NCBI GenBank assembly: GCA_035251445.1
Contig: DATFEG010000156.1
Location: 3,528-67,527 of the forward strand
DNA length: 64,000 nucleotides
Direction: 5' to 3'
Source: Gemmatimonadales bacterium
GTDB taxonomy: Bacteria; Gemmatimonadota; Gemmatimonadetes; Gemmatimonadales; GWC2-71-9
The notes beneath the pieces were generated by a model. The model searched no databases and was not told the origin of the DNA. It saw only the letters and a list, made by a program, of their open reading frames with translations. Numbering within the stretch: the stretch's first letter is position 1; each line of letters starts with the position of its first letter. Shown here piece after piece: positions 10,873 through 56,764 of the stretch. Position numbers and translations under genes: made by a program.

Positions 10873-10873
10873 T

Positions 10874-13921: not shown

Positions 13922-13939
13922 CCCTGTTCCTGTCCCCAA

Positions 13940-25854: not shown

Positions 25855-25864
25855 GGAGCGTGCC

Positions 25865-26227: not shown

Positions 26228-26233
26228 CACGCA

Positions 26234-28141
26234 ATGGACCTGTCGCAGTACGCCGAGCTGTTCCTGGCTGAGAGTCGGGAGCACTTGAGCGCCTGCAATC
26301 AGCTGCTGCTCGAGTGGGAACGCCGGCCATCGTCTCCCGAGCCGGTGAGCGGGATCTTCCGCGCGGTGCACACGATGAAAGGGATGGCGGCGACCATGGG
26401 ATATGGTCGCGTTGCCGACCTCGCGCATCGCATGGAGAATCTGCTGGACCAGCTAAGGCGCGGCGGCAAGCCACCGACTGATGCTACTCTGGAACTGCTC
26501 TTCCGTGCGACCGACGCGTTGGAGAAAGCGGTCGCTCTGGCGGTGGCCGGCCGCGAGCGCGAGCTCGACATCGCGTCGCTCGTCGCAGAATTTGACCACG
26601 CTGTCTCGGCCGGCGCTTCACCCGCCGCCGCTTCATCTACCGTCGCCTCATCTACCGTCGCCTCACCTCCCGTCGCCTCATCTCCCGTCGCCTCATCTCC
26701 CGTCGCCTCACCCGCTCGCCTCATTCACGTAGCCATCCGCCCTGAAACGCCGTTAAAAGGCGGCCGCGCCATGCTCGTGCTTCGTAAGGCGCAGACCCTG
26801 GGGACGGTGCAGCGGGTTCAGCCGCCCCCCACAGCGTTCGAGTCGGACGATTTCGATGGGAATGTGGCGTTCGAGCTGCACAGCTCCGCTGCGTCCCCTG
26901 AGATCGAGGCGGCGCTGCATGCGGTCGGCGACGTGGAGCGCGTCTCGATCGGCGGTAGTGAGGGCCGAGTCGATGACGCCGCGGGCGGGCGCAGCCGGCA
27001 CATCCGCGTCGACTTACGTCGCCTGGATACGCTGATGGACCTGATCGGGGAGCTCGTGACCGAGCGCGGCCGTCTGAACGAGGTGGCGGGCCGCTTGGCT
27101 GGTCAGGATCAGGCGATCGACGATATCGCGGTCCAGATCTCGCGCCTGTCCGCCGATCTCCAGAACGAGATCATTCAGGCACGCATGACGCCGGTGTGGC
27201 AGATCTTCGACCGTTTTCCGCGGCTCGTGCGCGACGTCGCGCGCCAGCTGGACAAAGACGTCGCGTTGCGCGTGGAAGGAAAGGAGATCGAGCTTGATCG
27301 GGCCATTCTCGACGAGCTCGGTGACCCGTTGGTGCACCTGCTGCGGAATGCCGTCGATCATGGAATCGAGCCACCCGCTGAACGCAAGCGGCACAAGAAG
27401 AACCCCGAAGGCCAGATCGTGCTCGCCGCGGTCCGTGAGCGCAACAGCGTCGCGATCAGCATCTCCGATGACGGCCGCGGTATCGATCGAGCGAGCATTC
27501 TCCAAAAAGCGAAGCGCGAGGGGATCGTGTCACCGCATGTCGAGTCGCTGTCCGACGATCAGCTCCTGCGCGTGCTCGCCCGGCCGGGCTTCACGACGGC
27601 CGGCACGGTCACGGCGGTGTCGGGCCGGGGCGTGGGAATCGATGTCGTCATGACGCGGCTCCGCACGCTCGGGGGATCGATCGAGATCCGGACGGAAACA
27701 GGGAAAGGCACGACGTTCATGCTGCGGCTTCCCGTCACGCTCGCCATCGTGCGCGCGCTGATCGCGGCCGTCGGGCACGAGCGGTACGCGCTGCCCCTGA
27801 CGTACGTCGCCGAAACGGTGGAGTTCGGTACGACCGCGCGGACGACGATGGAAGGGCGGGATGCGATCGTTCTGCGGGACCGCGTGGTGCCCCTCGTGGA
27901 TCTCCGCACGCTGCTGGGAACAAACGGCGGCGCTCCCGCGCCCCCTCCGCGGCGCCCCGTTATCGTGCTCGAAATGGGTGAGCGCCGCGCGGGTATCGTC
28001 GTCGACGGAATGCTCAGCCAGCAGGAGATTGTGGTGAAGGGATTCGACGCACCGCAGGGCACGTTGCCGATATTCAGCGGCGCCACGATCCTGGGGGATG
28101 GCGTGCCGACGTTGATATTGGATGCGGCGGGGCTGGTGTGA
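26234..28141 (+). CDS. cheA: Chemotaxis histidine kinase CheA
   Basis: It has an Hpt domain (FRAVHTMKGMAATMG), a dimerisation region, an HATPase domain (N, G1, G2 boxes) and a C-terminal CheW-like domain. A repetitive Ala/Ser/Pro linker follows P1. Confidence 0.95.
   Translation: MDLSQYAELFLAESREHLSACNQLLLEWERRPSSPEPVSGIFRAVHTMKGMAATMGYGRVADLAHRMENLLDQLRRGGKPPTDATLELLFRATDALEKAVALAVAGRERELDIASLVAEFDHAVSAGASPAAASSTVASSTVASPPVASSPVASSPVASPARLIHVAIRPETPLKGGRAMLVLRKAQTLGTVQRVQPPPTAFESDDFDGNVAFELHSSAASPEIEAALHAVGDVERVSIGGSEGRVDDAAGGRSRHIRVDLRRLDTLMDLIGELVTERGRLNEVAGRLAGQDQAIDDIAVQISRLSADLQNEIIQARMTPVWQIFDRFPRLVRDVARQLDKDVALRVEGKEIELDRAILDELGDPLVHLLRNAVDHGIEPPAERKRHKKNPEGQIVLAAVRERNSVAISISDDGRGIDRASILQKAKREGIVSPHVESLSDDQLLRVLARPGFTTAGTVTAVSGRGVGIDVVMTRLRTLGGSIEIRTETGKGTTFMLRLPVTLAIVRALIAAVGHERYALPLTYVAETVEFGTTARTTMEGRDAIVLRDRVVPLVDLRTLLGTNGGAPAPPPRRPVIVLEMGERRAGIVVDGMLSQQEIVVKGFDAPQGTLPIFSGATILGDGVPTLILDAAGLV
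26633..26720 (+). repeat. 15-nt in-frame tandem repeat (about 5.8 copies) in the CheA P1 linker
   Basis: The unit tcatctaccgtcgcc and its variants encode SSTVA SSTVA SPPVA SSPVA SSPVA SP. Confidence 0.92.
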
Positions 28142-28257: not shown

Positions 28258-28875
28258 GTGGAAGACGTTCGTGATCTAAAAGCACTGCAGCTCGATGCGC
28301 TCAAGGAAGTCGCCAACATCGGCGCGGGTCACGCGGCGACCGCACTGTCGCAGCTGACGCAGCGCCGCGTGATGATCTCCGTTCCCGAGATCAACATCGC
28401 GCGACTCGAAGACGTCGCTGGCGTACTCGGCGATCCTCAGGAAGTGGTGGCCGCCGTGTTGATGCACATGCTCGGCGACTTGACCGGGCGGACGCTGCTG
28501 CTCTTTCCCGAGCCCGTCGCACGGCGGCTGTGCGACATGCTTCTCAAGCGCCCACTGGGAACAACCAAGGAATTTGGCACGCTCGAGCAATCCTGTCTGA
28601 AGGAGTCCGGCAACATTCTCTCGGGTGCCTACATGAACGCGTTGTCGGAATTCATGGGCATGCTGCTCCTGCCGTCCGTGCCGAGTCTCGTTGTCGATCT
28701 TTCGGCGGCGGTCTTGACGACGACGTATTTGAATTTCGGGCACGACCGCGACGTCGTCTTTTGTGTCGAGACGGAATTCAGAATCGACAGCCGGGACGGC
28801 CTGCGCGGTCATTTCCTGCTCCTGCCCGATCTGGCGTCTCTCAAGGCTATTTTCGACGCCATCCGCTTGACTTGA
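28258..28875 (+). CDS. cheC: CheC-family CheY-P phosphatase
   Basis: It has two D/S-x3-E-x2-N-x22-P active-site motifs (DALKEVANIG...VP and SCLKESGNIL...VP). It starts with GTG, and GGGAG lies 7 nt upstream. Confidence 0.85.
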   Translation: MEDVRDLKALQLDALKEVANIGAGHAATALSQLTQRRVMISVPEINIARLEDVAGVLGDPQEVVAAVLMHMLGDLTGRTLLLFPEPVARRLCDMLLKRPLGTTKEFGTLEQSCLKESGNILSGAYMNALSEFMGMLLLPSVPSLVVDLSAAVLTTTYLNFGHDRDVVFCVETEFRIDSRDGLRGHFLLLPDLASLKAIFDAIRLT

Positions 28876-31580
28876 TCGTCTCCGAGCGCGACCTCACGGT
28901 GTTGAGGTCATTTTCCCGCCGGATCGACCCGTCGGACGCGGGCGCGCACAACAATCTCGGCGTTTTGTACTACCAGAAGGGACTCGTCCCCGAGGCCATC
29001 GAGCAGTTTACGCGCGCGCTCGAGCTCGACCCGCGCATGCAGGTGGCGCAGCGTAACCTCGAGATTGCCTATCACAACACGGGCTACTACGACCGGCGCG
29101 TCGCCGAGCTGCAGGAGCGGCTGCGCCAGGCGCCCGACGATCGCGACGCGCGCTGGGAGCTGGGCCGCACGTACGCCATCCTCGCTGCCTTCGACGAAGC
29201 GGTGGCGGAGTTCGAGGAGCTGCTCGCCCATAAGCCGAACGACGTCGCGGCGATCATTCAGCTGGGACTCGCCGAGAAAGCGCGCGGCCGGCTGGAGGTC
29301 GCGACGGAGTGGTTCAGCCGCGCGGTCGAGCAGGATCCCGCGTCGACGGTCGTCCACTTTTACCTGGGCGAGGTTTACTACAACCGCGGGCTGAACGAGC
29401 CCGCGCTCGCGGCGCTCGAGCGCGCGGTCTCGCTGAACCCCGACAACGCCAATGCGCACTATTTGATGGCGTTCGTCCTCGGCGACATGGGGCGCCACCA
29501 GGATGCACGCGCCGCGTCCAAGCGGGCGATTCAACTCAATCCACCCCTCGCCCGCGCGCAGACGAACCTGTCGCTGGAGCGCTATCGCGCCGAGCGGCAA
29601 TCGGCCGAGCACCGCCTGCGGGCGAGTCCCGCCCCGGAGGTCGCCGAAGGTCACGAGCTGGCCCACTTCAACCTCGGGCTCGCGTTCCGGCAGAAAGGCT
29701 ATTACACGGAGGCGTTGCGCGAATATCGGCTGGCCCTCGAGCGCGGCGAGGACCGCCGGCTGGTGCGTCAGGCGATGGCCGAAGTGCACCTGCTGAAACA
29801 CGACGTTGCCGACGCGCTCGAGCTGTATGAAGCGCTGATTCACGAGGTGCCGGACTCGCCGAAGCTGTGGAACGAGCGCGGCGTGGTATTGCACCAGGCG
29901 GGTCGCGCGGCGGAGGCGCTGGCCTCGTATCGGCAGGCGACCGACGTCGATCCACGCTACGCGCTGGCGTGGAACAACGTCGGTGTCGTGCTCGCGCATC
30001 AGCGCGACGCCGAAGACGCGATCCAGGCGTTTCGCAAGGCGTTGCAGCTGTCGTCCGCCTTCGCTGCCGCGCGGCTCAATCTCGCGTTATTGCTCACCCA
30101 TCTGCGCCGCTTCCAGCTCGCGCTCGAGGCCTATCGGCAAGTGCTGTCGGATCAACCGGCGTCTGCGCCCGCGTGGAACGGCGTCGGGCTCGTGCTCGTC
30201 GAGTTGAAGCGTTTTGTGGATGCGCGGAACGCATTCGTGCGCGCGGTCGAGGCGGACCCGCAGAACGCCGGTGCGCACTACAACCTCAGCTTCACACTTT
30301 CGAATCTCGGCGATTTCGACGGCGCGTTGCGTGCCACCAAGCGCGCGCTCGAGCTCGACCCCTATTACGTCTCGCAGAAGTTCGCGCTCGCCATCGACCT
30401 GCAGTACGAAACGGTCTCGATCGGGATCATCCCGGAGATCTCCGCCGACGTCGCTGCCGAGAGCCTTGCAGGCGAGTTTGCATTCGACCAGCGGCTGCTC
30501 GACAACATCTTCAAGGAGCTGGCGCCCGCGGCGGCCGCGGCCACGACCGCGCCGCAAGCGCCCGCCGGCATCGCGAAGCGGGCCGAGGACCCCCTGGCGC
30601 TCGCCCGTGACTATGTGAGCAAGGGAATGATGGATCTCGCGGTCGCCGAGACGATGCGCGCCGTGCAGCGCGGCGCCGATCGCGGCCGCGCGGCCACGCT
30701 GCTGGGCGAGATCTACGCGCGTCGCGGCTTGCACGGCGAGGCGCTGGAGCGCTACGGCGAAGCCCGCACACTCGATGCTGCCAATGCCGCCGCGGCGCTC
30801 GGGGAAGTGAAGAGCCTGCTCGCAATGCAGCGCCCCACCGAGGCGCTGCCCCTCGCCGAAGCCCTCGTGACCCGCATGCCCGATGATGTCGAGGTGCTGG
30901 TTGGTGTTGCGAAGGCGCGCGCCGCGACCGGGGACGCCGCCGGCGCGCTGACCGCGTTGCAGCGGGCCCAGACGCGCGCACCCGCGCGCGCCGATCTGCA
31001 CAAACTGCAGGGCGACATCGCGCTCAAGGTGGGCGAGCGCCAGGGCGCGCGGCAGGCGTATCGTGCCGCGCTCGATCTGGATAAGGGCTTCGTGCAGGTC
31101 TGGCTCGATCTCGGCCGGCTGCACGAGCACGACGAAGAGTGGCGGCTGGCGCAGCAGGCGTATGAAGAGGCGCTCGAGGCGTTGCCCACGTTTCACGAGG
31201 CGTCGCTCGCGCTGGCCGACCTGTTGCGCCGCACCGGCAGCGTGCGCTCCGCCGTCGTGCGGCTCGCGGACATGCTGGAGCAGGATCCGTACGATCTCGA
31301 CGCGTTGCTGCTCCTGGGCCGCGCGCTGCTGGATGACAAGCGCAACGAAGAGGCGCTCGAGGCGTTCCGGCGTGTGCTCAAATTCGACGCCGAGCACGCG
31401 GGTGCGCTTTTCTACCTGGGCGCGACGCTCGCGCGCCTGCAGCGCTACGCCGACGCCGTCGACGCCTGGGAGCGCGTGACGCGCCTCGATCCGGGGGGTC
31501 CCTTCGCGCAACGCGCGCGGATGCACGCGCGGACCGCGCTCGATCTGCAGCACATCTTCTCCACGCCGGATGCGGCCTGA
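28872..31580 (+). CDS. Large TPR-repeat protein (~900 aa)
   Basis: TPR motifs (A/G/Y/W periodicity, xxAxxxYxxALxxxP) run continuously throughout. The probable TTG at 28872 overlaps the cheC stop, with GTG at 28899 as an alternative. The upstream 114 codons of the track ORF overlap cheC and are discounted. Confidence 0.8.
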   Translation: MIVSERDLTVLRSFSRRIDPSDAGAHNNLGVLYYQKGLVPEAIEQFTRALELDPRMQVAQRNLEIAYHNTGYYDRRVAELQERLRQAPDDRDARWELGRTYAILAAFDEAVAEFEELLAHKPNDVAAIIQLGLAEKARGRLEVATEWFSRAVEQDPASTVVHFYLGEVYYNRGLNEPALAALERAVSLNPDNANAHYLMAFVLGDMGRHQDARAASKRAIQLNPPLARAQTNLSLERYRAERQSAEHRLRASPAPEVAEGHELAHFNLGLAFRQKGYYTEALREYRLALERGEDRRLVRQAMAEVHLLKHDVADALELYEALIHEVPDSPKLWNERGVVLHQAGRAAEALASYRQATDVDPRYALAWNNVGVVLAHQRDAEDAIQAFRKALQLSSAFAAARLNLALLLTHLRRFQLALEAYRQVLSDQPASAPAWNGVGLVLVELKRFVDARNAFVRAVEADPQNAGAHYNLSFTLSNLGDFDGALRATKRALELDPYYVSQKFALAIDLQYETVSIGIIPEISADVAAESLAGEFAFDQRLLDNIFKELAPAAAAATTAPQAPAGIAKRAEDPLALARDYVSKGMMDLAVAETMRAVQRGADRGRAATLLGEIYARRGLHGEALERYGEARTLDAANAAAALGEVKSLLAMQRPTEALPLAEALVTRMPDDVEVLVGVAKARAATGDAAGALTALQRAQTRAPARADLHKLQGDIALKVGERQGARQAYRAALDLDKGFVQVWLDLGRLHEHDEEWRLAQQAYEEALEALPTFHEASLALADLLRRTGSVRSAVVRLADMLEQDPYDLDALLLLGRALLDDKRNEEALEAFRRVLKFDAEHAGALFYLGATLARLQRYADAVDAWERVTRLDPGGPFAQRARMHARTALDLQHIFSTPDAA

Positions 31581-32719
31581 TGGCAATCGAAGGACCGCTG
31601 CGCGAGCTCGGCATCCACGACGTCTTCCAGCTGCTCGACCTGAGCCGGAAGACGGGCGCGCTGCGCGTCACCTCGGAGCTGCGTCATAACGAAGGGACGG
31701 TCTACTTCGACAACGGCGTCGTCGCCTCCGCCGAGATCCGCAGCAACCCTCATCCGTTGGGCGCGCTGCTCCTCCGGACCGGCAAGATCGCCGAGGCCGA
31801 CCTCGAGCGCGCGCGCGACATGCAGCAGCGCCTCGGCGACAAACGCCGTCTCGGCGAGATTCTCGTGAGCCTCGGTGTGATTACGCAACGTGAGGTGGAG
31901 CGGCAGGTCCGCTTTCAGATCGAGGAGGTCGTGTTCGAGGTGATGAGCTGGAACGAGGGCTACTTCTCTTTCAACGAGCAACCGCCGACGACATTCCCGA
32001 CCGAGGTATCGGTCCGCATTCCCGTCGAAGCGCTGTTGATGGAAGGCGCGCGGCGCATCGACGAATGGTCGCGGATCGAAAGCCGGATTCCGCACATCGG
32101 CGTAGTGCCCTCGCTCGCCCCTGCGCCGGAAGCGGGCGGGGGGGAGCTGGATCTCCTGCCGCCGGAATGGGAAGTGCTGGCGCTGATCGACGGCGCGCGG
32201 TCGGTGCGGGATCTCGCGAGCGAGCTTGGCCGCTCGGACTTCGAGGTGTCGAAAACGCTGTTTGGTCTCGAGAGCGCCGGCGTCATCGTCATCATGGATC
32301 CGGGGAGCGCCCGGCGCGGCCGGGCCGGCGTGAGCGCCGACCTCACGGAGCTCGTGGCGAAGGCTGAGCGCGCGCTGCACGCGAAAGACCTCGATGCCGC
32401 TCGCGCCGCGGCGGAACAGGCGGGCGCGCTGCAGCCACACGACGCGACCATCTACTTGCTGCTCGGTCGCGTCCATCTGGCCCAGGGTCACGCGTCGTCG
32501 GCGGCGGAACAGCTCCGCCGCGCGGTGCGGCTGGACCCGCTCTTGCCCGCGGCGTATCGCGTGCTCGGTTTCGCGCTTATCGCGATGGGCCGCTTTGCCG
32601 AAGCGCTGGCGAGCTGGGATCAGTGGGATCGCCTCGCGGCCCGCAGTGCCGACGAAGAAGCGCAGCGTCCCAACGTCGAGCGCGCGCGCCAGGCGGCCAG
32701 GGTGTTCGCCTTTGGCTGA
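31580..32719 (+). CDS. DUF4388 (PATAN-like) domain protein with C-terminal TPRs
   Basis: It has the N-terminal signature GxLxExxxxDVxQLLxLxxKTGxLxV, which I recognise as DUF4388, followed by a winged-helix-like middle region and TPRs. It is a paralogue of the gene at 36937. Confidence 0.72.
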   Translation: MAIEGPLRELGIHDVFQLLDLSRKTGALRVTSELRHNEGTVYFDNGVVASAEIRSNPHPLGALLLRTGKIAEADLERARDMQQRLGDKRRLGEILVSLGVITQREVERQVRFQIEEVVFEVMSWNEGYFSFNEQPPTTFPTEVSVRIPVEALLMEGARRIDEWSRIESRIPHIGVVPSLAPAPEAGGGELDLLPPEWEVLALIDGARSVRDLASELGRSDFEVSKTLFGLESAGVIVIMDPGSARRGRAGVSADLTELVAKAERALHAKDLDAARAAAEQAGALQPHDATIYLLLGRVHLAQGHASSAAEQLRRAVRLDPLLPAAYRVLGFALIAMGRFAEALASWDQWDRLAARSADEEAQRPNVERARQAARVFAFG

Positions 32720-33551
32720 CGACATCCGCGCGCTTTCCGCGCAGCTCGCACAGGACCCGCAGAGTCTGGTCTTCCTGCGCCTCGGTGAAGCGCTGCGCCG
32801 CAAGGGCCAGCTGGATGCGGCTCTGCGTGTGGCGGTCAACGGCCTCGAGCGGCATCCGCACCTGGCCGACGCGCACGATCTCTACGCCCGGGTGCTGACC
32901 GATAAGCACGATTACGAGCGGGCGTTCGACGAATGGGACATGGCCGTCCGCATCGCCCCGAAGCACACCGGGGCTCTGAAAGGGCTCGCGTTTCTCTATT
33001 TCAAGGTCGGGGACCTCGCGCAGGCCGAAGCGCACCTCGAGGCCGCGCGCAAAGTGGAGCCGGATGATCCGAGCATCGACCAAGCGTTTGAAATGATTCG
33101 CGGCGGTGCCAAAGCAGTTGCCGCTCCCCCCCCCTCGCCGCCGCCTCAATCGCCGCCCTCCGCCGCCCCAGCGAGCGGCGGGACTCTCGATGAGGCACGA
33201 GTGTTCGCCGGCCTCGACGGCGCCAATGAAGGCCTGCTCCTCATCGACGGCGCGGGGCGAGTTCTCGGCGGCGCGTTGCGCGACAAGTCCGGCACGGATG
33301 TGACCGACGCGGTCGCGGCGTACCTTGGAGGTGTCTCCCAGGAGGCGGCGCGCACGGCAAAGCTGCTCGGCCTCGGCGCGTGGAATGGACTCTCGGCCGA
33401 AGGTCAGCAGGGGAACGTGCATCTCGCCCATCCCACGGCCGACGCTCTCTTGCTGGTCGTGCGCGAGCGCGGCGTTCCGCTCGGCCGGCTCACCATTTTG
33501 GCGCAGCGGGCCACCCTGATGGCGCGTCGCTGGTTGGAGAAAGAAACGTGA
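32712..33551 (+). CDS. TPR + Roadblock/LC7-like fusion protein
   Basis: The TTG at 32712 overlaps the preceding gene by 8 nt. N-terminal TPRs and a PPPSPPPQSPP linker are followed by a C-terminal ~110 aa with the Roadblock-like pattern (GLLLIDGAGRVLGG...ALLLVVRERGVPLGRL). Confidence 0.62.
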   Translation: MADDIRALSAQLAQDPQSLVFLRLGEALRRKGQLDAALRVAVNGLERHPHLADAHDLYARVLTDKHDYERAFDEWDMAVRIAPKHTGALKGLAFLYFKVGDLAQAEAHLEAARKVEPDDPSIDQAFEMIRGGAKAVAAPPPSPPPQSPPSAAPASGGTLDEARVFAGLDGANEGLLLIDGAGRVLGGALRDKSGTDVTDAVAAYLGGVSQEAARTAKLLGLGAWNGLSAEGQQGNVHLAHPTADALLLVVRERGVPLGRLTILAQRATLMARRWLEKET

Positions 33552-33895
33552 GTGCCGCGCTCGACCTGATCACGCGCGTCCGCGGAGTGCGCGGGGCGAT
33601 GCTCGTCTCAGCCGAGGATGGGCTCATCGTCGCCGAACAGTTGATGGAAGGCATCAAGGGCCGGGCGGTGGCCGCGTTGGCGGCGAGCCTCGCGGGCCGG
33701 CTGCAGCGCGCGATGGCGGCCGCGGGCATCGGCTCGAGCGTATTTTGGCACTTGCAAGGCGAGCAGGGGGCGTTGCTGGTCGTCCCGGGTGGCACCGCCG
33801 CGGGAGGCATTTTGGTCGTCGCCGTCGCGGAGCCCGACGTGAACATCGGACTCGTGCGACTGGAGCTGCTGCGCGCCGCCGAGGCGTTTGTATGA
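33548..33895 (+). CDS. Roadblock/LC7 domain protein
   Basis: The GTG at 33548 overlaps the preceding stop as GTGA. The 115-aa ORF has the classic Roadblock pattern VRGVRGAMLVSAEDGLIVAE...GILVVAVAEPDVNIGLVRLEL. Confidence 0.72.
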   Translation: MSAALDLITRVRGVRGAMLVSAEDGLIVAEQLMEGIKGRAVAALAASLAGRLQRAMAAAGIGSSVFWHLQGEQGALLVVPGGTAAGGILVVAVAEPDVNIGLVRLELLRAAEAFV

Positions 33896-34368
33896 GCCCG
33901 CACACGCGCGCGGTCGAGAGCTGGACGCTGCAGCCGCTCACCGATTTCGTACGCGAGGCCTCGGTCCGCATGGTGCTGGTGTTGACCCCAGCGGGGCAGG
34001 TGTTGGCGCAGTCGGGCTTTTCGCGCGCAGTCGACGTGATGTCGGCGGCAGCGCTCGCGGCAGCGATCGTCGCGTCCACCGGCGAGCTGGCGCGCCAGCT
34101 GCGACAACCGCCGTTTGCTGCACTGAGCCACCAGGGCCGCAAGCACGGGTTCTTCCTCGCGTCCTCTTCGTCCGAGCGCGGGACGCTGGCGGTGCTCGCC
34201 GTGTACGATCTCGACGTTTCATCGCTCGGGTTGGTGCAGTTATTCTATGAGCAACTTGCAGCGGACCTGAAGGCGGCCAGCCCCAAAGGTGCCGTACCGA
34301 AGCAGGTGCTGGCCGCTGACTTCGAGCGCGAGCTCACGGACAGCCTCAATACGCTGTTTGGGAGATAG
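33892..34368 (+). CDS. mglB: MglB-like Roadblock protein (putative MglA GAP)
   Basis: The ATG at 33892 overlaps the preceding stop as ATGA. The 158-aa ORF lies immediately upstream of mglA, as in the Myxococcus mglBA operon. SLGLVQLFYEQLAADL and the C-terminal TDSLNTLFG mirror MglB SLGLVRLRIKKASDEL and DDIDNLFSE as I recall them. Confidence 0.68.
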   Translation: MSPHTRAVESWTLQPLTDFVREASVRMVLVLTPAGQVLAQSGFSRAVDVMSAAALAAAIVASTGELARQLRQPPFAALSHQGRKHGFFLASSSSERGTLAVLAVYDLDVSSLGLVQLFYEQLAADLKAASPKGAVPKQVLAADFERELTDSLNTLFGR

Positions 34369-34370: not shown

Positions 34371-34973
34371 GTGTCCCTGGTCAACTTCACGAGCCGCGAG
34401 ATCACCTGCAAAATCGTCTACTACGGACCGGGCCGGTCCGGGAAGACGACCAATCTCCATTACATCTACGAGCGCGTACCGGAGACCCGTCGCGGCCGCA
34501 TGGTGTCGCTCGCCACGCAGACCGACCGCACGCTGTTCTTCGATTTCCTGCCGATCGACCTAGGTCAGATCTCCGGCTTTTCCACGCGCTTTCAGCTCTA
34601 CACCGTGCCGGGGCAGGTTTACTACAACGCCACTCGGCGACTCGTCCTGCAGGGCGCCGACGGTGTGGTGTTCGTTGGCGACAGCCAGGCGCGCCAGCTC
34701 GACGAGAATATCGAGAGCCTCCAAAACCTCCACAGCAACCTGCTGGAACACGGCGTCGACGTGCGCACGATGCCGCTGGTGATGCAATACAACAAACAGG
34801 ACCTGCCACGCGAGCTGATTCTCACGCCCGCCGAGCTGGACGACTCGCTGAACTTTCGCTCGGTGCCGTCCTTTTCGGCCGACGCGCTCCACGGCAAGGG
34901 AGTATTCGAGACACTGAAGAGCATCTCGGAGCTCGTGCTGAAGAAGCTGGCTGCGGGGAGCCCGGCGGCATGA
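34371..34973 (+). CDS. mglA: MglA-family Ras-like small GTPase
   Basis: The 200-aa ORF has REITCKIVYYGPGRSGKTTNLHYIY (P-loop), DRTLFFDFLP, YTVPGQVYY (switch 2) and QYNKQDL (NKxD). It is near-colinear with M. xanthus MglA. Confidence 0.92.
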   Translation: MSLVNFTSREITCKIVYYGPGRSGKTTNLHYIYERVPETRRGRMVSLATQTDRTLFFDFLPIDLGQISGFSTRFQLYTVPGQVYYNATRRLVLQGADGVVFVGDSQARQLDENIESLQNLHSNLLEHGVDVRTMPLVMQYNKQDLPRELILTPAELDDSLNFRSVPSFSADALHGKGVFETLKSISELVLKKLAAGSPAA

Positions 34974-36937
34974 CCACCACGCTCAACCCCCGCTTCACGT
35001 TCGACACCTTCGTGGTGGGCGCGGCCAACCGCCTGGCGGTCACTGCCGGCCGGACGGTGGCCGAGAATCCCGGCTTCGCCTACAACCCGCTCTTCATCTA
35101 TAGTGGGTCTGGTCTCGGAAAGACGCATGTCATGATGGGGATCGGCCACGCGGCCAAGTCGCTCGCGCCGCAGCTGAACATCGAATACCTGACGTTGGAC
35201 GAATACGTCGAGGCATTTCACGCCGCCATCGCCGCGGGGCAGGGCGACGCCTTCCGGCGGCGCTTCCAAAACGTGGGCGTGCTGCTCGTCGACGACGTGC
35301 AATTCCTCACGAACCGCAAAGAGATGCAGGCCGAGCTGCTACGCCTGACCGAAGCGCTGCAGCAGGCCGGCCATCAGATTGTGTTGGCCAGCGACCGGCC
35401 GCCCGCCGAAATCGCTGACCTCGACGAACGGCTGATTTCCCGGTTCTCCGGCGGTCTGGTTGTCGACATCGGGGTCCCGGACTATGAGACGCGCGTCGCG
35501 ATTTTGCGGCGCAAAGCGGAGGGGCGGGGGATCGCGTTCCAGCCGGGTGTGCTCGAGACGATTGCGAAAATCGAGTTCCCGAATGTGCGCGAGCTGATGG
35601 GTGCGCTGAACCGGGTTGTGGCCTTCCAGGCCGTGCACGACTCGCCCGTCAACGAAGAAGCGGTGCGCAAGGTGCTCGGCGTCCCGGCCGCTGCCTCATT
35701 GGCCGCTGCCTCATCGGCCGCTGCCTCATCGGCCGCCGCCTCTCCGGCCGTCGCCTCACCCGACGAGTTCTCGCAGTTTCTCACTGACGTCACCGCCAAT
35801 GTGGGAAAGGCCGTCGAGGCCTGGCGCGCGCGCGTGGCCGAAGCGGTGATGCGTTGGCAGGGGGAAGGCTATCGTACCGGACGTCTCGAGCAGCTCCTGG
35901 ATCGAAACAAGCCGGCGGCGGTGGACGACGAGATCGACGCCTACGTACGGGATGTGGAGCGGCTCAAGGCGCTCGAGGCGGAAGTCGCGACGCTGGATCC
36001 GCGGGTCGCGGGTGACAAAGTCTTCCACGATCCGGACCGCATGGACGAAGCCGAAGCGGCCGCCGCCCGGGTGCGCGAGGGCGCGGCGCCGCCGCCTGCC
36101 CCGTCGGGTGCGTTTCCGCTCGAAAGTTTTCGCGCGGGCCCGTCCAACGAGGTCGCGCTCAGCGCGGCGCGCGATGTCATTGCGAAACCGGGCAAGAAGT
36201 ACAATCCGCTCGTCATCGTCGGCAACAGCGGGCTGGGGAAGACGCACCTCCTGAACGCAATCGGCCTGGAGCTGTCGAAGAAAAGAGGCGCGATCGTGGC
36301 GTGTCTGTCCACGCAGGCGTTTGTGGACGAGCTGATCGCGGCGATCGACGGCAACCGCGTGGATTGGTGGCGCGCACGCTATCGGCGGTGCACGGCGCTC
36401 GTGCTCGATGACATCCAGCTTCTCGCCGGCAAGCAGCGCACGCAGGAAGAGCTGTTCAATCTCTTCAACCAGTTCCTCGACGCCGAGCGCCAACTTGTGT
36501 TCTCCGCGCCCGCGCATCCCAAGACCCTGGAAGGGCTGGAGGAGCGCATTGTGTCCCGGCTCGAGGGCGGGCTCGTCGCGGAGCTGGGTGAGCCCGACAA
36601 GGACGTGCGCCGCAGCGCGCTGGAGGGCCTGCTCCGGCAGCAACGCGTGATGACGGATTCCGCGTTGCTGGATTATCTCGCCGACCGCCCGGTGGATTCT
36701 GTCCGCAGCCTGACGGCACTCGTGCAGCGGGTCCTCGAGGCGGCGGCCGCGCAAGACGCGCCGGTCACGGCGGCTCTCGCGCGGGACGTGCTCGAAGGCT
36801 CAGTTGCGGCGCGCCGCTCGCTCGGTGCCCGGACCAGCGGCCTCGTGGTCTCGAGCGCGGGCGGCGTGCGCAGCCGCGAAAAGATGGTGTGGGATTGGCC
36901 GACGGCCGCCGACCGCGTCATTGAGGACATCCGCTGA
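34970..36937 (+). CDS. Tandem DnaA-like AAA+ ATPase (two Bac_DnaA-type modules, no DNA-binding domain IV)
   Basis: The ATG at 34970 overlaps the mglA stop as ATGA. Module 1 has NPRFTFDTFVVGAANRLA, Walker A GSGLGKTH, Walker B LLVDDVQFL, LASDRPP, SRFSGGLVVDI and NVRELMGALNRV. Module 2 has ESFRAGPSNEVA, GNSGLGKTH, LVLDDIQLL, SAPAHP, SRLEGGLVAEL and SVRSLTALVQRV. A repeat linker and a coiled-coil-like segment separate them. The protein ends without a DnaA_C helix-turn-helix. Confidence 0.8.
   Translation: MTTTLNPRFTFDTFVVGAANRLAVTAGRTVAENPGFAYNPLFIYSGSGLGKTHVMMGIGHAAKSLAPQLNIEYLTLDEYVEAFHAAIAAGQGDAFRRRFQNVGVLLVDDVQFLTNRKEMQAELLRLTEALQQAGHQIVLASDRPPAEIADLDERLISRFSGGLVVDIGVPDYETRVAILRRKAEGRGIAFQPGVLETIAKIEFPNVRELMGALNRVVAFQAVHDSPVNEEAVRKVLGVPAAASLAAASSAAASSAAASPAVASPDEFSQFLTDVTANVGKAVEAWRARVAEAVMRWQGEGYRTGRLEQLLDRNKPAAVDDEIDAYVRDVERLKALEAEVATLDPRVAGDKVFHDPDRMDEAEAAAARVREGAAPPPAPSGAFPLESFRAGPSNEVALSAARDVIAKPGKKYNPLVIVGNSGLGKTHLLNAIGLELSKKRGAIVACLSTQAFVDELIAAIDGNRVDWWRARYRRCTALVLDDIQLLAGKQRTQEELFNLFNQFLDAERQLVFSAPAHPKTLEGLEERIVSRLEGGLVAELGEPDKDVRRSALEGLLRQQRVMTDSALLDYLADRPVDSVRSLTALVQRVLEAAAAQDAPVTAALARDVLEGSVAARRSLGARTSGLVVSSAGGVRSREKMVWDWPTAADRVIEDIR
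35686..35760 (+). repeat. 15-nt in-frame tandem repeat (5 copies) in the linker of the DnaA-like protein
   Basis: The unit ggccgctgcctcatc and its variants encode AAASL AAASS AAASS AAASP AVASP. Its 3-prime end cgtcgcctcaccc is identical to the end of the CheA repeat. Confidence 0.92.
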
Positions 36938-38553
36938 TGGCGATCAAGGGCTCGCTGAAGGAAGCCTCGCTGCCGGACGTGCTCCAGCTGCTCGCGCTCG
37001 GGCAGAAAACCGGCTGCCTCTCGATCGCCGACCGCTCGAACTTCGGATACATCTACTTTGACCGGGGACGCATTGCCTACGCCTCCATCGTGAATCGCCG
37101 CGATCGGCTCGGCGACATTCTCGTCAAGCACGAGAAGATTTCGCAGGAGCAGCTGGATGCCGCGATCCACCGCCAGTCCAGGGAGCGCGACAGGAAGCTG
37201 GGCGAGATCCTCGTGACGCAAAGCGTGCTCACGCAACAGGAGCTCGAGCGCTACATGCGCATGCAGATCGAGGAATCGGTGTTCTACCTGTTCACGTGGA
37301 CACAAGGGACCTTCAATTTCGAGGCGGACGTTCGTCCGGAGCAGCAGGATTTCCTCGTCTCCATCAATCCCGAGTCGCTCCTGCTCGAGGGCGCGCGCCG
37401 CGTCGACGAATGGGGACTGATCGAGAAAAAGATTCCTTCCTTCGATCTCATCTTCCTCGTCGATCGGGACCGCCTCGCGATCAGTGATTCCACACTCACG
37501 GACGTGCAGGAGCGCCTGCTGGCGCTGCTGGACGGCTCGCGTGACGTGAATCAGGTCATCGAGGATTCCGGCCTGGGGGAGTTCGAAGTCGGCAAGGCGT
37601 TGTACGGCCTCGTCACCGCGGGCTTCCTGCATCGCGCGGGCCGAACGGCGGGAGCGGAAGACGCGAAGATGACGGACGCGCGCGTCGAAGAGCACCGTAA
37701 TCTCGGCATCGCCTTCTACAAGACGGGCATGTTGGACGAGGCCGCCCGGGAATTCCGCCGGGTGGCGGAGTTGCGGCCCGTCGACGGCAACGCGCACTTC
37801 TTCATCGGTCTCGTCGCGCTGAAGCAGGCGCGTTGGCGCGAGGCGATGGAGGCGCTGCGACTCGCGGCGGAGAAAGGCGGCTCGCGGCCCGCGGTGCTGC
37901 ACAACCTGGGACTCGCCTACGAGCAACTCGGTCGGCTCGCGGAAGCGGAGGCCGCCTACGCGGAGGCGGCGACGCGCGCCAAGACCGATCCGCGCGTGTA
38001 TGTGGGATGGGGTGTCGTGGCACTGAAGCGCGGTGACTACGCCGGTGCCGCGGGGCGACTCGACCGCGCGCGTGAGCTCTACGTGCAGCACGTGCCGCCG
38101 ATATGGTACTGGGCGCGCGTGCTGGCCGCCGCCGGCGCGGGCGATTTCGAGACGGCCGAGCAGATGGCGGGACAGGCGGTGGAGGCGTACCCGCAGAACG
38201 GCGTGCTACGCAACAACCTCGCCGTGCTGCTCGAGCTCGCGGGCGACTTGCCGCAGGCGGAGAATTTGGCGCGCGCCGCGCTCCGCGACGAGCCGTCACT
38301 GCCTCAGCTGTCCAAAAACCTCGGCGACCTCGCCTATCGCGCCTCCCGCTACGACGAGGCGTGGACTCTCTACCAGCGCGCGATCGAGCTCGCGCCCGAG
38401 TTGGGGGACGACATCTACTTCAAGCTCGGGAACATTGCGTACAAGCAAAACGACCGGCAGCAGGCGAGCGACCTCTGGCGCCGGGCACTCGAGCTGAATC
38501 CCAAGCACGAGCTCGTGAAAGCGAATCTCGACACGTTGAGCACGTTGTCGTGA
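36937..38553 (+). CDS. DUF4388 (PATAN-like) domain protein with C-terminal TPRs (second paralogue)
   Basis: Its N-terminus MAIKGSLKEASLPDVLQLLALGQKTGCLSI parallels MAIEGPLRELGIHDVFQLLDLSRKTGALRV in the gene at 31580. It has the same middle region and a longer TPR tail. Its start overlaps the preceding stop by 1 nt. Confidence 0.75.
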   Translation: MAIKGSLKEASLPDVLQLLALGQKTGCLSIADRSNFGYIYFDRGRIAYASIVNRRDRLGDILVKHEKISQEQLDAAIHRQSRERDRKLGEILVTQSVLTQQELERYMRMQIEESVFYLFTWTQGTFNFEADVRPEQQDFLVSINPESLLLEGARRVDEWGLIEKKIPSFDLIFLVDRDRLAISDSTLTDVQERLLALLDGSRDVNQVIEDSGLGEFEVGKALYGLVTAGFLHRAGRTAGAEDAKMTDARVEEHRNLGIAFYKTGMLDEAAREFRRVAELRPVDGNAHFFIGLVALKQARWREAMEALRLAAEKGGSRPAVLHNLGLAYEQLGRLAEAEAAYAEAATRAKTDPRVYVGWGVVALKRGDYAGAAGRLDRARELYVQHVPPIWYWARVLAAAGAGDFETAEQMAGQAVEAYPQNGVLRNNLAVLLELAGDLPQAENLARAALRDEPSLPQLSKNLGDLAYRASRYDEAWTLYQRAIELAPELGDDIYFKLGNIAYKQNDRQQASDLWRRALELNPKHELVKANLDTLSTLS

Positions 38554-39413
38554 GCCTGGAGGGCACGCTCGGGAAAGACGAACAGGGCTTCCACCAGCTC
38601 ACCGAGAAGGTCTCACGCGAGCGGGGCATCAGCTGCGGATCATACAAAGAAAAGTGTTTACGCCGCCGCATCGCGGTCCGCATGCGCGCGCGCGGCGTCC
38701 ACAGCTACGCCGATTACGCCCGGTTGCTCGATCGGGACGCGGGCGAATATCAAGAGCTCCTCGATGCGCTCACCATCAACGTCACGAAGTTCTTTCGCAA
38801 CGCCGAAACATGGGATGCGTTGCGTCCCTACCTTGTAGAGTTGTGGGCTGCCCGGCGGAGGGAAGGCGAGCCGCTCCGGATCTGGTCGGCGGGATGTGCC
38901 TCGGGTGAAGAGCCATACACGATCGCCGTGCTGCTCGCCGAAATCTTGGGCGAGGATCTCCGGCGGTCGTTCATCGATGCGACCGATATCGACCGGCTGA
39001 GCCTCGAGCGCACCCGCCAGGCGCAATACCCCGAGACCGCCTTCTCGGAGATGCCGGTGCACCTGAAGCGCCGCTACTTTGTGGACGGACGTCCGGTCGC
39101 GCGGATCGGCGAGGTCGTGCGGGTGCTCCACCACGATCTGACGCGGGAGCCGCCGCCGCGTTCCGTCTACGATCTCATCGTGTGTCGCAATGTCGCCATC
39201 TACTTCGAGCGCGACGCACAGGAGCGGCTGTATGGGACGTTCGCCACAGCCTTGCCGCCAGGCGGCGCGCTGCTGCTCGGGAAGGTCGAGACGCTGTTCG
39301 GCCCGGCGCGCGAGCGGCTCACACTCCTCGACCCGCGCGAGCGGATCTATGTGAAGCCGATCGGCAAAGCCTCGGCCCACCTCTCTGGAACCGAGAGGAT
39401 GGGTGAGGCCTGA
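38550..39413 (+). CDS. cheR: Chemotaxis protein methyltransferase CheR
   Basis: The GTG at 38550 overlaps the preceding stop as GTGA. It has the CheR N-terminal helical domain and the SAM site IWSAGCASGEEPYT. Confidence 0.9.
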   Translation: MSLEGTLGKDEQGFHQLTEKVSRERGISCGSYKEKCLRRRIAVRMRARGVHSYADYARLLDRDAGEYQELLDALTINVTKFFRNAETWDALRPYLVELWAARRREGEPLRIWSAGCASGEEPYTIAVLLAEILGEDLRRSFIDATDIDRLSLERTRQAQYPETAFSEMPVHLKRRYFVDGRPVARIGEVVRVLHHDLTREPPPRSVYDLIVCRNVAIYFERDAQERLYGTFATALPPGGALLLGKVETLFGPARERLTLLDPRERIYVKPIGKASAHLSGTERMGEA

Positions 39414-39421
39414 AGGAAATA

Positions 39422-39892
39422 GTGGTCACCGTGGCTGACTGGGCAGCCGAGCGCGGGGATGGAGTCCTGGTGACCCTGGGGCTCGGCTCATGTGTCGCCA
39501 TCATGCTGCATGATCCGGAGAGCGGGGCCGGTGCGCTGGCTCACGTGCTCCTTCCCTCGACCAGCCTGGCACGCGACACCAGCAATCGCGCGAAGTTTCC
39601 GGAAACCGCCGTGCCGCTGATGATTGAACGCCTCACAGCACTTGGCGCCGATCCGCGACGCCTGTGCGCAAAGCTCGCCGGCGGCGCCAGCATGTTCAGC
39701 CAGCTCGTTACGCCCGGCACGATCCAGATGGGTGAGCGCAACGTGCTCGCGGCGCGCACCGCGCTGCGCCGCGCTGCCATTCCCATCGTTCGCGAAGCGG
39801 TCGGTGGGGAGCTCGGCCGCAGCATCCGCTTTCATGTGAAGGACGGCCGCGTCGAGATTCGGTCGGTGGGCGCCGATGTCCAGGTGATCTGA
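39422..39892 (+). CDS. cheD: Chemoreceptor glutamine deamidase CheD
   Basis: The 156-aa ORF has the [13 protein letters not shown] catalytic Cys region and HVLLP. Confidence 0.88.
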
Positions 39893-39897
39893 CCGCC

Positions 39898-40998
39898 ATG
39901 CCATCCGAGCCGCGCCCGGCCGCCACCCGGCCCACGGTGCTCGTCGCCGACGACAGCGCCCTGATGCGGCGGGTGCTCGTCGATGTGCTCGGCGACGAGT
40001 TTCAGGTGGTCGCGACCGCACGCGACGGCATCGACGCGATCCGCAAGACCCACCGGTACAATCCCGACGTCGTCACGCTCGACCTCGAGATGCCGCAGCT
40101 CGACGGCCTCGGCGCCATCGGCTACATCATGTCGGAATCCCCGCGCCCCATCGTCGTCGTGAGCGCACACGCGGGGCCGGGCACAGCGACGGCCATCCGC
40201 GCGCTCGAGCTGGGTGCGGTCGAAATCGTCGCCAAGCCCCCACCGCCGGCTCACGCCCTCGCGCACTCGCGCGCCGCGCTCGCCACCTTGGGGCCTCAGC
40301 TTGTCACCGCGATTCATCGCGCGCTCGCAGCCGACGTTTCGCACGTCAAAGTGCTGGCTCGTCCACCGGCGCCCGTCGTGCATCCACCGGAGGTGGCATT
40401 GCGGGGCCGGGCGGGTCTGGTCGTTGGTGTTGCGGCGTCCACCGGTGGACCGCGCGCGCTCGCTGAGGTGATCCCGCGTCTGCCGACCGGCCGCGGCGCC
40501 GCGGTGCTCATTGTGCAGCACATGCCGCCCAAGTTCACGCGCAGTCTCGCCGAGCGACTCGATTCGATCAGCGCGTTGCGCGTTGTGGAGGCGGACGACG
40601 GAGCGCCGATCGTCGCCGACACGGCATACGTGGCGCCGGGCGATTATCATATGCGAGTGCGAACCGCTCACGATGGCCCGGTCATCGCGCTCGATCAGTC
40701 GACTCCCATCTGGGGCGTTCGTCCGGCCGCCGATCTCCTGTTCCACTCCATCGCGCAAGTGTACGGCGCGCGTGGCGTCGGTGTCGTGTTGACGGGGATG
40801 GGCCGGGACGGCGCGGAGGGGTTGCGCGCCATGCACGACGCAGGGGGCGCTGGTCTAGCCCAGGACCGCGAAACCGCCGTCACGCACGGGATGCCCGCGG
40901 CCGCGGTGCAGGCGGGTGGGGTCGATGCGGTGCTGCCGTTGGAGAAGATCGCGGACCGGGTCTGGGCGGAGTTGATGAAGAGGAATCCGCAGCGATGA
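39898..40998 (+). CDS. cheB: Chemotaxis response regulator protein-glutamate methylesterase CheB
   Basis: It has a receiver domain ([12 protein letters not shown]...TLDLEMP) and a methylesterase domain (ASTGGP, HMP, GMGRDGA). Confidence 0.93.
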
Positions 40999-41414
40999 AG
41001 GGCTATCTGCTGGTTCGCTCCGAGGGGAAAACCTACGGCCTTCCCGTCGCGCGCGTGCTCGAAGTCGGCGATGCGACGGAAGTGCTCGCCGTGCCGCGCA
41101 AGCTTGCCGCGGTGCGCGGGCTCACGCCACTGCGCGGCCGCCTGGTTCCGCTCATTCATCTCGGGGCTTTCCTGACGGGACAGGCAGCGCCTGACACAGG
41201 GCCCGCGGGCGTTAGAACGATCGTGCTCGTCGAGATCAAGGGCCGACACGTCGCGCTCGAGGTCGATGATGTCGACGCGGTGGTTCGAGAACAGCCGCTC
41301 CCCGTTCCCCACGGGCAGACGCTGCCGTGGGCGAGCGCAGTGGCGCCTCAAGGCCAGAGCGGCGGGCTCGTGCCGATTCTCGATCTCGACGCCTTGGGAG
41401 ATCGCATAGGATGA
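40995..41414 (+). CDS. cheW: CheW-like coupling protein (copy 2)
   Basis: The 139-aa ORF has the CheW-like pattern [21 protein letters not shown]...[12 protein letters not shown]. It overlaps cheB as ATGA. Confidence 0.78.
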
Positions 41415-41881
41415 ATCTTGCGGGCGCCGCCGGCGATGAAGTCCAGCTCGTGACCTTCAAGGTGGGCGGTCAGGATTTCGCGTTCAACATCTTTCAGGTC
41501 GAGCGCATCCTGCGCTACGAAGCGCCCGCGCCCTTGCCGAAGGCGCCCGAGTTTCTCGAGGGGGTGGTGCGCTACGGGGGCGGCGCGGTGCCGCTCATCG
41601 ATCTGCGCAAGCGACTGGGGACGACAGCCCCGCTGCGCGAAGACACTCGCACCATCATTCTCGAGTTCGAGGGAGGCAAGATCGGCATCATCGTCGATGC
41701 GGTGACTGAAGTACTGCAGGTGGCGGCGCAGTCCGTTACGCCACCACCGGGAATCGTGAAAGGCCTGGCCGCGGAATACATCGCCGGTCTCGTCGTGCAA
41801 AATGGGCGCACGATTATCGTGTTGAATACGAACAAGCTGCTGACTTCGCAGGAGAAACTGGCATTGCAGGGAGCGACGTGA
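41411..41881 (+). CDS. cheW: CheW-like coupling protein (copy 3)
   Basis: The ATG at 41411 overlaps the preceding stop as ATGA. It has the pattern LVTFKVGGQDFAFNIFQVERILRYE...VVRYGGGAVPLIDLRKRLG. Confidence 0.85.
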   Translation: MNLAGAAGDEVQLVTFKVGGQDFAFNIFQVERILRYEAPAPLPKAPEFLEGVVRYGGGAVPLIDLRKRLGTTAPLREDTRTIILEFEGGKIGIIVDAVTEVLQVAAQSVTPPPGIVKGLAAEYIAGLVVQNGRTIIVLNTNKLLTSQEKLALQGAT

Positions 41882-45869: not shown

Positions 45870-45896
45870 CTCAGCGTCGGACGATCATCCATGAAG

Positions 45897-45924
45897 CCCC
45901 CGCCCCTTACGGCGGGGGTTTTCT
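45897..45924 (+). terminator. Rho-independent terminator after tRNA-Asp
   Basis: An 8-bp all-GC stem (ccccgcc.. / ..ggcgggg; 45897-45904 pairs with 45911-45918) with a 6-nt loop is followed by ttttctt. Confidence 0.7.
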
Positions 45925-45959
45925 TATGTTTGAGAGTGCCATTGGTGGCTGAACGCGTG

Positions 45960-55651: not shown

Positions 55652-55654
55652 CAC

Positions 55655-56737: not shown

Positions 56738-56764
56738 TAAATTCGCTATATTAGCTGCCCACAG

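Follow-up and report, generated by a model that had tools for sequence, protein, structure and literature searches.

The locus

The window analysed here is a stretch of 64,000 nucleotides from Gemmatimonadales bacterium, a soil bacterium (assembly GCA_035251445.1, contig DATFEG010000156.1, positions 3,528-67,527 of the forward strand), and the gene in question, here called DnaA2x, encodes a protein of 655 residues in which the AAA+ ATPase domain of the replication initiator DnaA (domain III) occurs twice. Its open reading frame runs from an ATG at 34970 to a TGA at 36935-36937 and overlaps its neighbours at both ends: the ATG shares the letters ATGA with the TGA of an upstream mglA gene of 200 codons (GGCGGCATGACC), and the stop shares the letters TGATG with the ATG of the next gene, which encodes a DUF4388/PATAN protein with tetratricopeptide repeats (TPR) (ATCCGCTGATGGCG). 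The frame and both junctions had been described in an earlier reading made from the letters alone (the sequence-only reading), and all of them are seen in the sequence. The parts of the gene are listed below, with the confidence of the AlphaFold2 (AF2) model given as the predicted local distance difference test (pLDDT).

34970-36937, forward strand: DnaA2x coding sequence (tandem DnaA-III protein), 655 residues, matched by PF00308 in two stretches, with more than 300 homologues of the same length
34970-35680, forward strand: module 1 (residues 1-237), a complete DnaA domain III; 207 bits and 46% identity to Bacillus subtilis DnaA-III; pLDDT above 90
35685-35758, forward strand: tandem repeat with a 15-bp unit, 4.9 copies, 88% matches, encoding (AAASS)n in the disordered linker
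35765-36082, forward strand: helical middle domain (residues ~266-371, about 105 residues), conserved, assigned from AF2 helices and conserved positions
36095-36805, forward strand: module 2 (residues 376-612), DnaA domain III; 135 bits to B. subtilis DnaA-III; pLDDT about 90-96
36875-36934, forward strand: C-terminal tail motif REKMVWDWPTAADRVIEDIR (residues 636-655), following the disordered residues 612-635

Two DnaA-type modules

The Pfam family PF00308 (Bac_DnaA) matches DnaA2x in two stretches with an E-value of 9e-101, and at E <= 0.01 there are zero Pfam matches in the protein to PF11638 (DnaA_N) or PF08299 (Bac_DnaA_C). Module 1 begins at residue 3-5, and just 43 residues remain after module 2, of which 24 are predicted to be disordered in the AF2 model. 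Judged by these matches, DnaA2x is a protein without DnaA domain I and without the DNA-binding domain IV, which bears out the earlier description of two tandem DnaA-like AAA+ modules lacking both, with a likeness well outside anything that chance could give.

The motifs that had been quoted for the two modules were all found in their places. In module 1 the Walker A motif covers G46-H53 (nucleotides 35105-35128) and includes K51, Walker B contributes D108 and D109, sensor I is D142, box VII provides R154 together with the arginine finger R158, and sensor II is R207. Module 2 has its Walker A motif at G418-H426 (nucleotides 36221-36247), with K424, as well as Walker B (D480 and D481), an arginine finger (R530) and sensor II (R579); the sensor-I aspartate has been lost from it, since D142 of module 1 aligns with P514.

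When the modules are compared with sequences in the PDB, module 1 (residues 4-233) aligns without a gap to domain III of B. subtilis DnaA (8bv3) at 207 bits and 46% identity, and module 2 reaches 135 bits and 35% identity against the same chain, with a single gap of one residue, whereas the Hda chains score only 26-27 bits against module 2. Between the two modules themselves the identity is 32%. On these scores both modules are of the DnaA type and not of the Hda type, so that of the earlier label “DnaA/Hda-like” the first half holds for both modules and the second must be dropped (207 and 135 bits to DnaA; about 27 bits to Hda for module 2).

The AF2 model, which was computed from an alignment of 59 family sequences, has a mean pLDDT of 85.4 and contains two confident DnaA-III folds. 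The top Foldseek matches, 8bv3 and 8btg, superpose with a root-mean-square deviation of 1.2-1.4 Å and a TM-score of 0.95 normalised to the target, and the predicted structure of each module agrees in this way with the DnaA likeness that had been proposed from the letters. In the secondary structure of the model both modules have a pair of helices between the second and third beta strands (residues 76-88 and 92-100 in module 1, 448-460 and 464-472 in module 2), in a region that aligns with DnaA without gaps, and it is this helix pair that marks the initiator clade of AAA+ proteins (DnaA/Orc/Cdc6/DnaC). The initiator-specific helix pair favours open spirals rather than closed rings in the proteins of this clade.

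Linker, middle domain and tail

The segment that follows module 1 (residues 240-267) is predicted to be disordered, with a pLDDT below 50, and the (AAASS)n stretch within it is gapped and variable in family alignments. Beyond it the model contains helices at residues 266-299, 304-311, 318-342 and 355-371 with a pLDDT of about 80-90. The middle domain which they form is unmatched in Pfam, is 113-115 residues long in most family members, and carries the motifs DEFxxFL, W296, EGYRT and FxDPD, with F270, W296, G300, L306, L332, D354 and P355 near-invariant in the family alignment. The repeat reported between the modules by the sequence-only reading is present, but what had been taken there for a charged helical segment is a conserved and confidently folded helical domain.

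The end of the protein likewise differs in part from its first description. The absence of a DnaA_C domain after module 2 stands; the final 20 residues, however, are not a featureless tail but a family-wide motif with the consensus xEKxVWxWPDxxxRxIEELR-COOH. In 254 of 321 family-sized proteins EKx[VIL]WxWP is followed by exactly 11-12 residues up to the C-terminus. The window protein has all the features that define the family, namely two DnaA-III modules, a middle domain of about 114 residues, and EKxVWxWP with 11 residues after it.

Family, age and selection

Full-length two-module relatives with identities to the window protein as low as 32% were recovered when 1.84 billion cluster representatives were scanned exhaustively. 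The closest 120 clusters at 90% identity are all about 650 residues long, and those with organism names stem from metagenome-assembled genomes (MAGs) of Gemmatimonadales. The named members of the family come from Gemmatimonadales, Gemmatimonadaceae, other Gemmatimonadota and “Candidatus Cloacimonetes bacterium 4572_55”, so that every organism-named member falls in the FCB group, and most fall in Gemmatimonadota. NCBI labels these proteins “DnaA/Hda family protein”, while the JGI label is often “chromosomal replication initiator protein DnaA”; the probable reason is that the summed score of the two modules against TIGR00362 (486.6 bits) passes the cutoff of 343.9. Full-text literature on DnaA together with MglA, PATAN, chemosensory systems, MshEN or type IV pili yielded no description of the tandem DnaA-III family.

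In a neighbour-joining tree the family sequences fall into two clades, one holding every module 1 and the other every module 2, with mirrored internal topologies and moderate bootstrap support (21/60 for the module-1 clade and 38/60 for the module-2 clade). The first modules of two proteins are more similar to each other than module 1 of one is to module 2 of the other in 97.6% of protein pairs, and the corresponding statement for second modules holds in 71%. These comparisons indicate that the first modules are orthologous to one another throughout the family, as are the second modules, and this positional orthology in turn points to one old duplication that preceded the diversification of the family. 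Purifying selection acts on both modules, as is seen from ratios of non-synonymous to synonymous substitution rates of 0.04-0.15 (module 1) and 0.09-0.30 (module 2), and neither K424 nor D480 varies in the alignment of 59 sequences.

It must be considered whether the two-module frame is an artefact of gene calling or assembly, or whether module 2 is a functionless pseudo-domain in a decaying gene. Some database relatives are indeed chimeric or frameshifted (P0261, P0204 and the copy at locus L027), and one subclade has a degenerate P-loop in module 2, but an open reading frame of about 650 residues recurs in hundreds of independent assemblies, and both modules are under purifying selection and confidently folded in the AF2 model, with K424 and D480 retained as described. 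The artefact explanation has next to no probability and is, for practical purposes, refuted.

The aberrant sequences can be accounted for individually. P0261 was rejected as a canonical dnaA because it is an assembly chimera, in which what looks to be an alphaproteobacterial-type DnaA domain I is joined at Walker A to a family module 1, and P0204 was rejected because its N-terminus is an out-of-frame read-through of mglA. The copy at L027 (from L027:8001) reads as 737 residues as the result of a frameshift near the tail. In a single lineage (P0160, P0180, P0184, P0189, P0196, P0208, P0240 and P0245) the Walker A and Walker B motifs of module 2 are fully degenerate, reading for example WSPDGAAARA and LLVHGAEDL, and the module 2 arginine finger and the tail motif are retained.

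The operon

The genes which surround DnaA2x in the window are the following.

~25330-25854, 25865-26227 and 26234-28141, forward strand: CheW, CheY and CheA, at the head of the cluster (25330-28141)
28530-31580, forward strand: all-TPR protein, 1016 residues, present in 61 of 80 related loci
31580-32719, forward strand: PATAN (DUF4388)-TPR protein a; PF14332, E = 2e-32; NF053729, 38.0 bits at a cutoff of 38
32715-33551, forward strand, start approximate: TPR protein with a C-terminal region that is Roadblock-like by eye (unscored); syntenic in 68 of the 68 loci that reach this position
33548-33895, forward strand: second Roadblock/LC7 protein, about 115 residues; PF03259 on a longer open reading frame, match to PDB 7f8m (Robl_LC7)
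33892-34368, forward strand: mglB homologue, Roadblock/LC7, 158 residues; PF03259, 35 bits to Myxococcus xanthus MglB
34371-34973, forward strand: mglA, Ras-like GTPase, 200 residues; 248 bits to M. xanthus MglA and 236 bits to Thermus thermophilus MglA
36937-38553, forward strand: PATAN (DUF4388)-TPR protein b; PF14332, E = 3e-39; NF053729, 51.3 bits at a cutoff of 38; present in 77 of 80 related loci
38550-40998, forward strand: CheR (start approximate, to 39413), CheD (39422-39892) and CheB (39898-40998); Pfam matches, syntenic
40995-41881, forward strand: CheW (40995-41414), then a CheW to 41881; Pfam matches, syntenic

The order of the cluster is accordingly CheW, CheY, CheA, 1016-residue TPR protein, PATAN-TPR, TPR, Roadblock, MglB, MglA and DnaA2x, followed by PATAN-TPR, CheR, CheD, CheB, CheW, CheW, a TPR protein, an MA-family peptidase and a further TPR protein, and most of the junctions between its genes are overlapping or abutting. 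Over its whole extent (25330-45750) it holds a complete Che set (three CheW, CheY, CheA, CheR, CheD and CheB) mixed with MglA/MglB, PATAN and TPR genes.

The gene directly upstream of DnaA2x is, by its match to M. xanthus MglA over the full length at 248 bits, a true MglA, as the sequence-only reading had named it, and in the syntenic loci listed it is 92-96% identical. The PATAN proteins carry an MshE-type motif for cyclic di-GMP (c-di-GMP) in the helical insertion of the PATAN domain of both, located at residues 57-110 in protein b, and their matches to NF053729 suggest that the PATAN domains of the window are c-di-GMP receptors.

Signs of a replication locus were sought as well. Neither dnaA nor dnaN is present elsewhere in the 64-kb window, the cumulative GC skew is monotonic across it with no turn, and the DnaA-box-like sites in it (5 against 2.6 expected) form no cluster. 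In the absence of DnaA-box enrichment and of a skew turn, an origin of replication is ruled out for this region. Given the missing domains and this setting, it is highly probable that DnaA2x is not a replication initiator.

Gene context across the family

In all 80 related loci from other genomes (66-93% identity) the gene order is identical, within the extent of each locus. A member at 34% identity keeps the succession TPR, PATAN-TPR, TPR, Roadblock, Roadblock, MglA and DnaA2x, and the same order is found at locus L086, where the DnaA2x copy is a shorter relative of 599 residues.

A different arrangement is seen in a clade at 32% identity that includes the “Cloacimonetes 4572_55” MAG. Its loci contain neither MglA nor Roadblock genes, and the order is CheW, CheY, CheA, an AAA_22 ATPase, CheW, CheC, an 826-residue TPR protein, a 241-residue PATAN protein and DnaA2x, with the PATAN gene overlapping the DnaA2x start. 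The PATAN proteins of this distant clade match NF053729 below its cutoff. The ATPase gene between CheA and CheW (L081:4035-4853 and L084:3743-4561) encodes an AAA_22/STAND-like P-loop protein of 272 residues, which may stand in for the GTPase module in this clade that lacks MglA and MglB. In a third context an 867-residue TPR gene lies directly upstream of DnaA2x. A 200-residue gene after the copy at locus L085 was considered as a possible MglA and rejected (BLASTP E = 2.1, no Pfam or NCBIfam match).

Taken over all the family contexts examined, a large TPR neighbour is found in every one and PATAN and Che genes in all but one, and MglA and MglB are limited to some lineages of the tandem DnaA-III family. 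Because the TPR and PATAN proteins are the most conserved neighbours, MglA may act on DnaA2x only indirectly, and by this conservation of context the likely direct partners are the TPR and PATAN proteins rather than MglA.

Related fusion architectures

The same association is found within single polypeptides. P0243, P0244 and P0248 (L088:1-3786) are TPR-rich proteins of 1110-1754 residues with a single DnaA-III module at the end, and they are apparently fusions of the domains of gene types that adjoin each other in the window. The scan also recovered giant proteins of 1876-1990 residues in which MshEN at the N-terminus is combined with two DnaA-III modules. At locus L087 (positions 4309-15923, GCA_030620115.1) three adjacent genes combine MshEN with DnaA-III, in proteins of 983, 398 and 1990 residues, and these genes lie inside a type IV pilus cluster that encodes PilD (prepilin peptidase), PilB (MshEN with T2SSE), PilT, PilC and PilS/PilR. 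Relatives of the 398-residue form include one named Candidatus Fermentibacteria. Since DnaA-III is repeatedly fused to, or found beside, TPR arrays and MshE-type c-di-GMP elements, these architectures provide evidence of the Rosetta-stone type for a physical partnership.

Asymmetric conservation of the active sites

The residues of the nucleotide-binding sites were counted, without correction for phylogeny, in 52 family representatives that include metagenome fragments. The Walker A lysine is retained in all 52 first modules and in 42 second modules, and the arginine finger is retained in 46 second modules and in 37 first modules. If composite sites are formed from these components, the site that combines the module 1 pocket with the module 2 finger (site A) is intact in 43/52, the reciprocal site, which combines the module 2 pocket with the module 1 finger (site B), is intact in 27/52, and only 1/52 has site B intact without site A. 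We infer that this is the pattern to be expected if the finger of module 2 serves ATP bound to module 1, in the head-to-tail manner of neighbouring DnaA protomers.

Comparison with known systems

DnaA itself (TIGR00362; structures 8bv3/8btg, 2z4r and 1l8q/2hcb/3r8f) shares with DnaA2x the full series of Walker A, Walker B, box VI, box VII arginine finger and sensor II motifs, as well as the helix pair between the second and third beta strands. DnaA2x differs from it in the lack of domains I/II and IV, in the presence of two copies of domain III per chain together with a new middle domain and C-terminal motif, and in a context of signalling genes instead of dnaN and oriC. Domain III is generally seen as a module devoted to replication, whose only well-known offshoots are Hda and DnaC/IstB.

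Hda/HdaA (TIGR03420) is likewise a DnaA paralogue that consists of the AAA+ domain only, without domain IV; it is made of one module only and acts at the replisome by way of the beta-clamp. An assignment of DnaA2x to Hda was rejected, because TIGR03420 scores 174.3 bits, below its cutoff of 194.8, and because of the low Hda scores of module 2 noted above. The N-terminus of DnaA2x, MTTTLNPRFTF, contains no motif like QL[SD]LF or QLxLPL, the forms typical of beta-clamp binding. An assignment to the DnaC/IstB helicase loaders or IS21 helpers was rejected also (NF038214, 89.8 bits against a cutoff of 200; no transposase or dnaB in the operon), as was an anti-phage defence NTPase, for which PADLOC gave only P-loop-level matches of <=27 bits with no full stretch.

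A role in the regulation of replication does not require that DnaA2x be an initiator. The protein could co-oligomerise with genuine DnaA through domain III surfaces and cap it, poison it or stimulate its ATP hydrolysis in the manner of Hda, and would thereby couple chemosensory or polarity signals to initiation. The 46% identity of module 1 to B. subtilis DnaA-III, the retention of R158, R154 and R207, the summed TIGR00362 score above the cutoff, and the position of the operon between divIVA and the dcw/ftsZ cluster are all consistent with such a role. Against it, no replication gene occurs in any conserved context, a clamp-binding motif of the Hda type is not seen in the N-terminus, the Hda comparisons fail as just described, and the partners found fused to DnaA-III are not replication proteins but TPR arrays and MshEN domains, with the MshEN fusions located in a pilus cluster. 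Regulation of this kind is improbable. Improbable too is the specific form in which a DnaA mimic joins or caps initiator filaments in response to MglA, Che and c-di-GMP signals, so that the polarity and chemosensory pathway gates replication directly; if it were true, it could bear on the budding, asymmetric division that has been reported for Gemmatimonas.

Among signalling systems the nearest parallel to the window operon is the MglA/MglB-SgmX-Frz system of M. xanthus, to which it corresponds in its Che pathway, its MglA, its MglB homologue with further Roadblock proteins, and its large all-TPR proteins. Type IV pili at the leading pole of M. xanthus are activated when MglA-GTP binds to the TPRs at the C-terminus of SgmX, which consists only of TPRs, and the MglA of Bdellovibrio co-purifies with a TPR protein (PMC7668184). 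The published system is without a DnaA-type ATPase, whereas in the window all the parts are encoded by closely coupled genes of a single operon, to which PATAN proteins and DnaA2x also belong; in the literature on MglA, TPR and PATAN proteins that was found, no DnaA-type ATPase is mentioned.

A second parallel is provided by the PATAN regulators (PatA, PixG/PixE) and the MshEN receptors of c-di-GMP, since DnaA2x is flanked by, or translationally coupled to, PATAN genes with an MshE-type motif, and since direct fusions of DnaA-III to MshEN occur elsewhere in the FCB group. In contrast to those of the window, the PATAN proteins known so far carry receiver domains and have PilB as a binding partner, as the PATAN-receiver proteins of Synechocystis bind the pilus motor PilB1 (work cited in PMC9090330). 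The occurrence of PATAN genes close to mglA and mglB was pointed out earlier (PMC4316618), and no report that links PATAN or MshEN to a DnaA-type ATPase was found in the literature.

Two AAA+ modules per chain, one of them often catalytically weaker, are also a property of p97/Cdc48, NSF and ClpB. The whole DnaA2x chain matches p97 in Foldseek with E ~1e-13 at a TM-score of only ~0.27. Those proteins are of the classic clade and assemble into closed double hexameric rings that have pore loops, whereas both DnaA2x modules are of the initiator clade, in which the assemblies are open spirals.

Interpretation

Because the gene always lies within a polarity or chemosensory operon, it appears that a replication ATPase fold has been reused for signalling. 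The reading which we prefer, at a probability of about 0.55, is that DnaA2x is a non-replicative, ATP-dependent switch or scaffold in a module of PATAN-TPR, MglA/MglB and Che proteins that most likely serves polarity and surface motility of the type IV pilus kind in Gemmatimonadota. The broader statement that DnaA2x functions within the signalling module is well supported by its context and may be held with good confidence, and the role of an ATP-dependent switch or scaffold is inferred. The sequence-only reading had already suggested that the initiator fold was repurposed in a GTPase/che operon, and this suggestion is well supported by the lack of domains I and IV, by the lack of dnaN or signs of an origin nearby, by a context fixed in 80 genomes, and by the TPR and MshEN fusions; it needs amendment in that MglA is not a universal partner.

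A mechanism can be outlined along the following lines, although its specific elements, the composite site and the tail, are tentative. With the nucleotide pocket and the initiator helix pair kept in both modules, DnaA2x would associate head-to-tail into open dimers or short spirals and not into closed rings. The main active site would be a composite of the P-loop and Walker B of module 1 with the arginine finger of module 2, as the asymmetry of conservation suggests, and the frequent degeneracy of the reciprocal site would make the protein an asymmetric, slow “timer” ATPase whose nucleotide state sets partner binding. The acidic tail of fixed length (EKxVWxWP...IEELR-COOH), on its disordered tether, could be a dock for the neighbouring TPR or PATAN-TPR protein. 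Inputs might arrive as MglA-GTP, as CheA/CheY phosphorylation, and as c-di-GMP through the MshE-type motif of the PATAN domains, and the output would be the localisation or activation of a polar machine, probably one like the type IV pilus.

Several observations weigh against this interpretation or against parts of it. The window contains no type IV pilus genes, and among the window open reading frames scanned there is no gene for a methyl-accepting chemotaxis protein (PF00015). The predicted TM-score of the model is 0.48, which leaves the mutual arrangement of the two modules unfixed; the tail is modelled at low confidence, and the docking role given to it is pure conjecture; and the asymmetry is drawn from counts with the limits stated above. 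In addition, module 2 retains the positions that contact single-stranded DNA in DnaA, namely V211, K243 and R245 of Escherichia coli, which are here I, K and R.

This last observation bears on the possibility that DnaA2x handles nucleic acids, in which case the tandem modules would assemble on single-stranded DNA or RNA as a spiral like that of DnaA, for instance during pilus-dependent DNA uptake, and the signalling genes would only regulate it. The hydrophobic and basic contact residues persist in module 2, which has I or V in 32 and R in 35 of the 52 representatives, and in the TPR- and MshEN-fused modules, which have I or V in 10 of 10; a type IV pilus cluster is, moreover, the setting of the related MshEN-DnaA-III genes. 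Module 1, however, has lost the hydrophobic contact (H84, a position which is variable in the family), the operons are without DNA-processing genes, and retention of residues that lie within the helix pair may be merely structural. A nucleic-acid-handling role is improbable on balance.

What is new in DnaA2x is the architecture, and the functional setting, in which an initiator-clade AAA+ ATPase occurs: the tandem DnaA-III proteins form a family that is widespread in a major soil phylum, strongly conserved and unstudied, encoded within an operon of MglA/MglB, PATAN, TPR and Che genes. If the preferred reading is true, they represent a new class of ATP-driven component in bacterial polarity and motility signalling, they offer a natural “domain III only” system for studies of DnaA-type oligomerisation, and the recurrent annotation of such proteins as initiators (the JGI label given above) is an error that can be corrected.

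Flanks of the cluster

The signalling cluster is flanked on one side by housekeeping genes (divIVA, ileS, dksA, lspA, rluD) and on the other by the dcw/ftsZ cluster. The divIVA gene (18816-19409) lies about 6 kb upstream, and directly downstream, at 45891-62651, the dcw cluster comprises rsmH, ftsI, murE, murF, murD, ftsW, murG, murC, ftsA and ftsZ, after which there is an M23 peptidase gene. Farther upstream, at 15153-15953 and adjoining folP, a gene unrelated to DnaA2x encodes a protein with a DisA_N/DAC domain, a putative cyclase for cyclic di-AMP.

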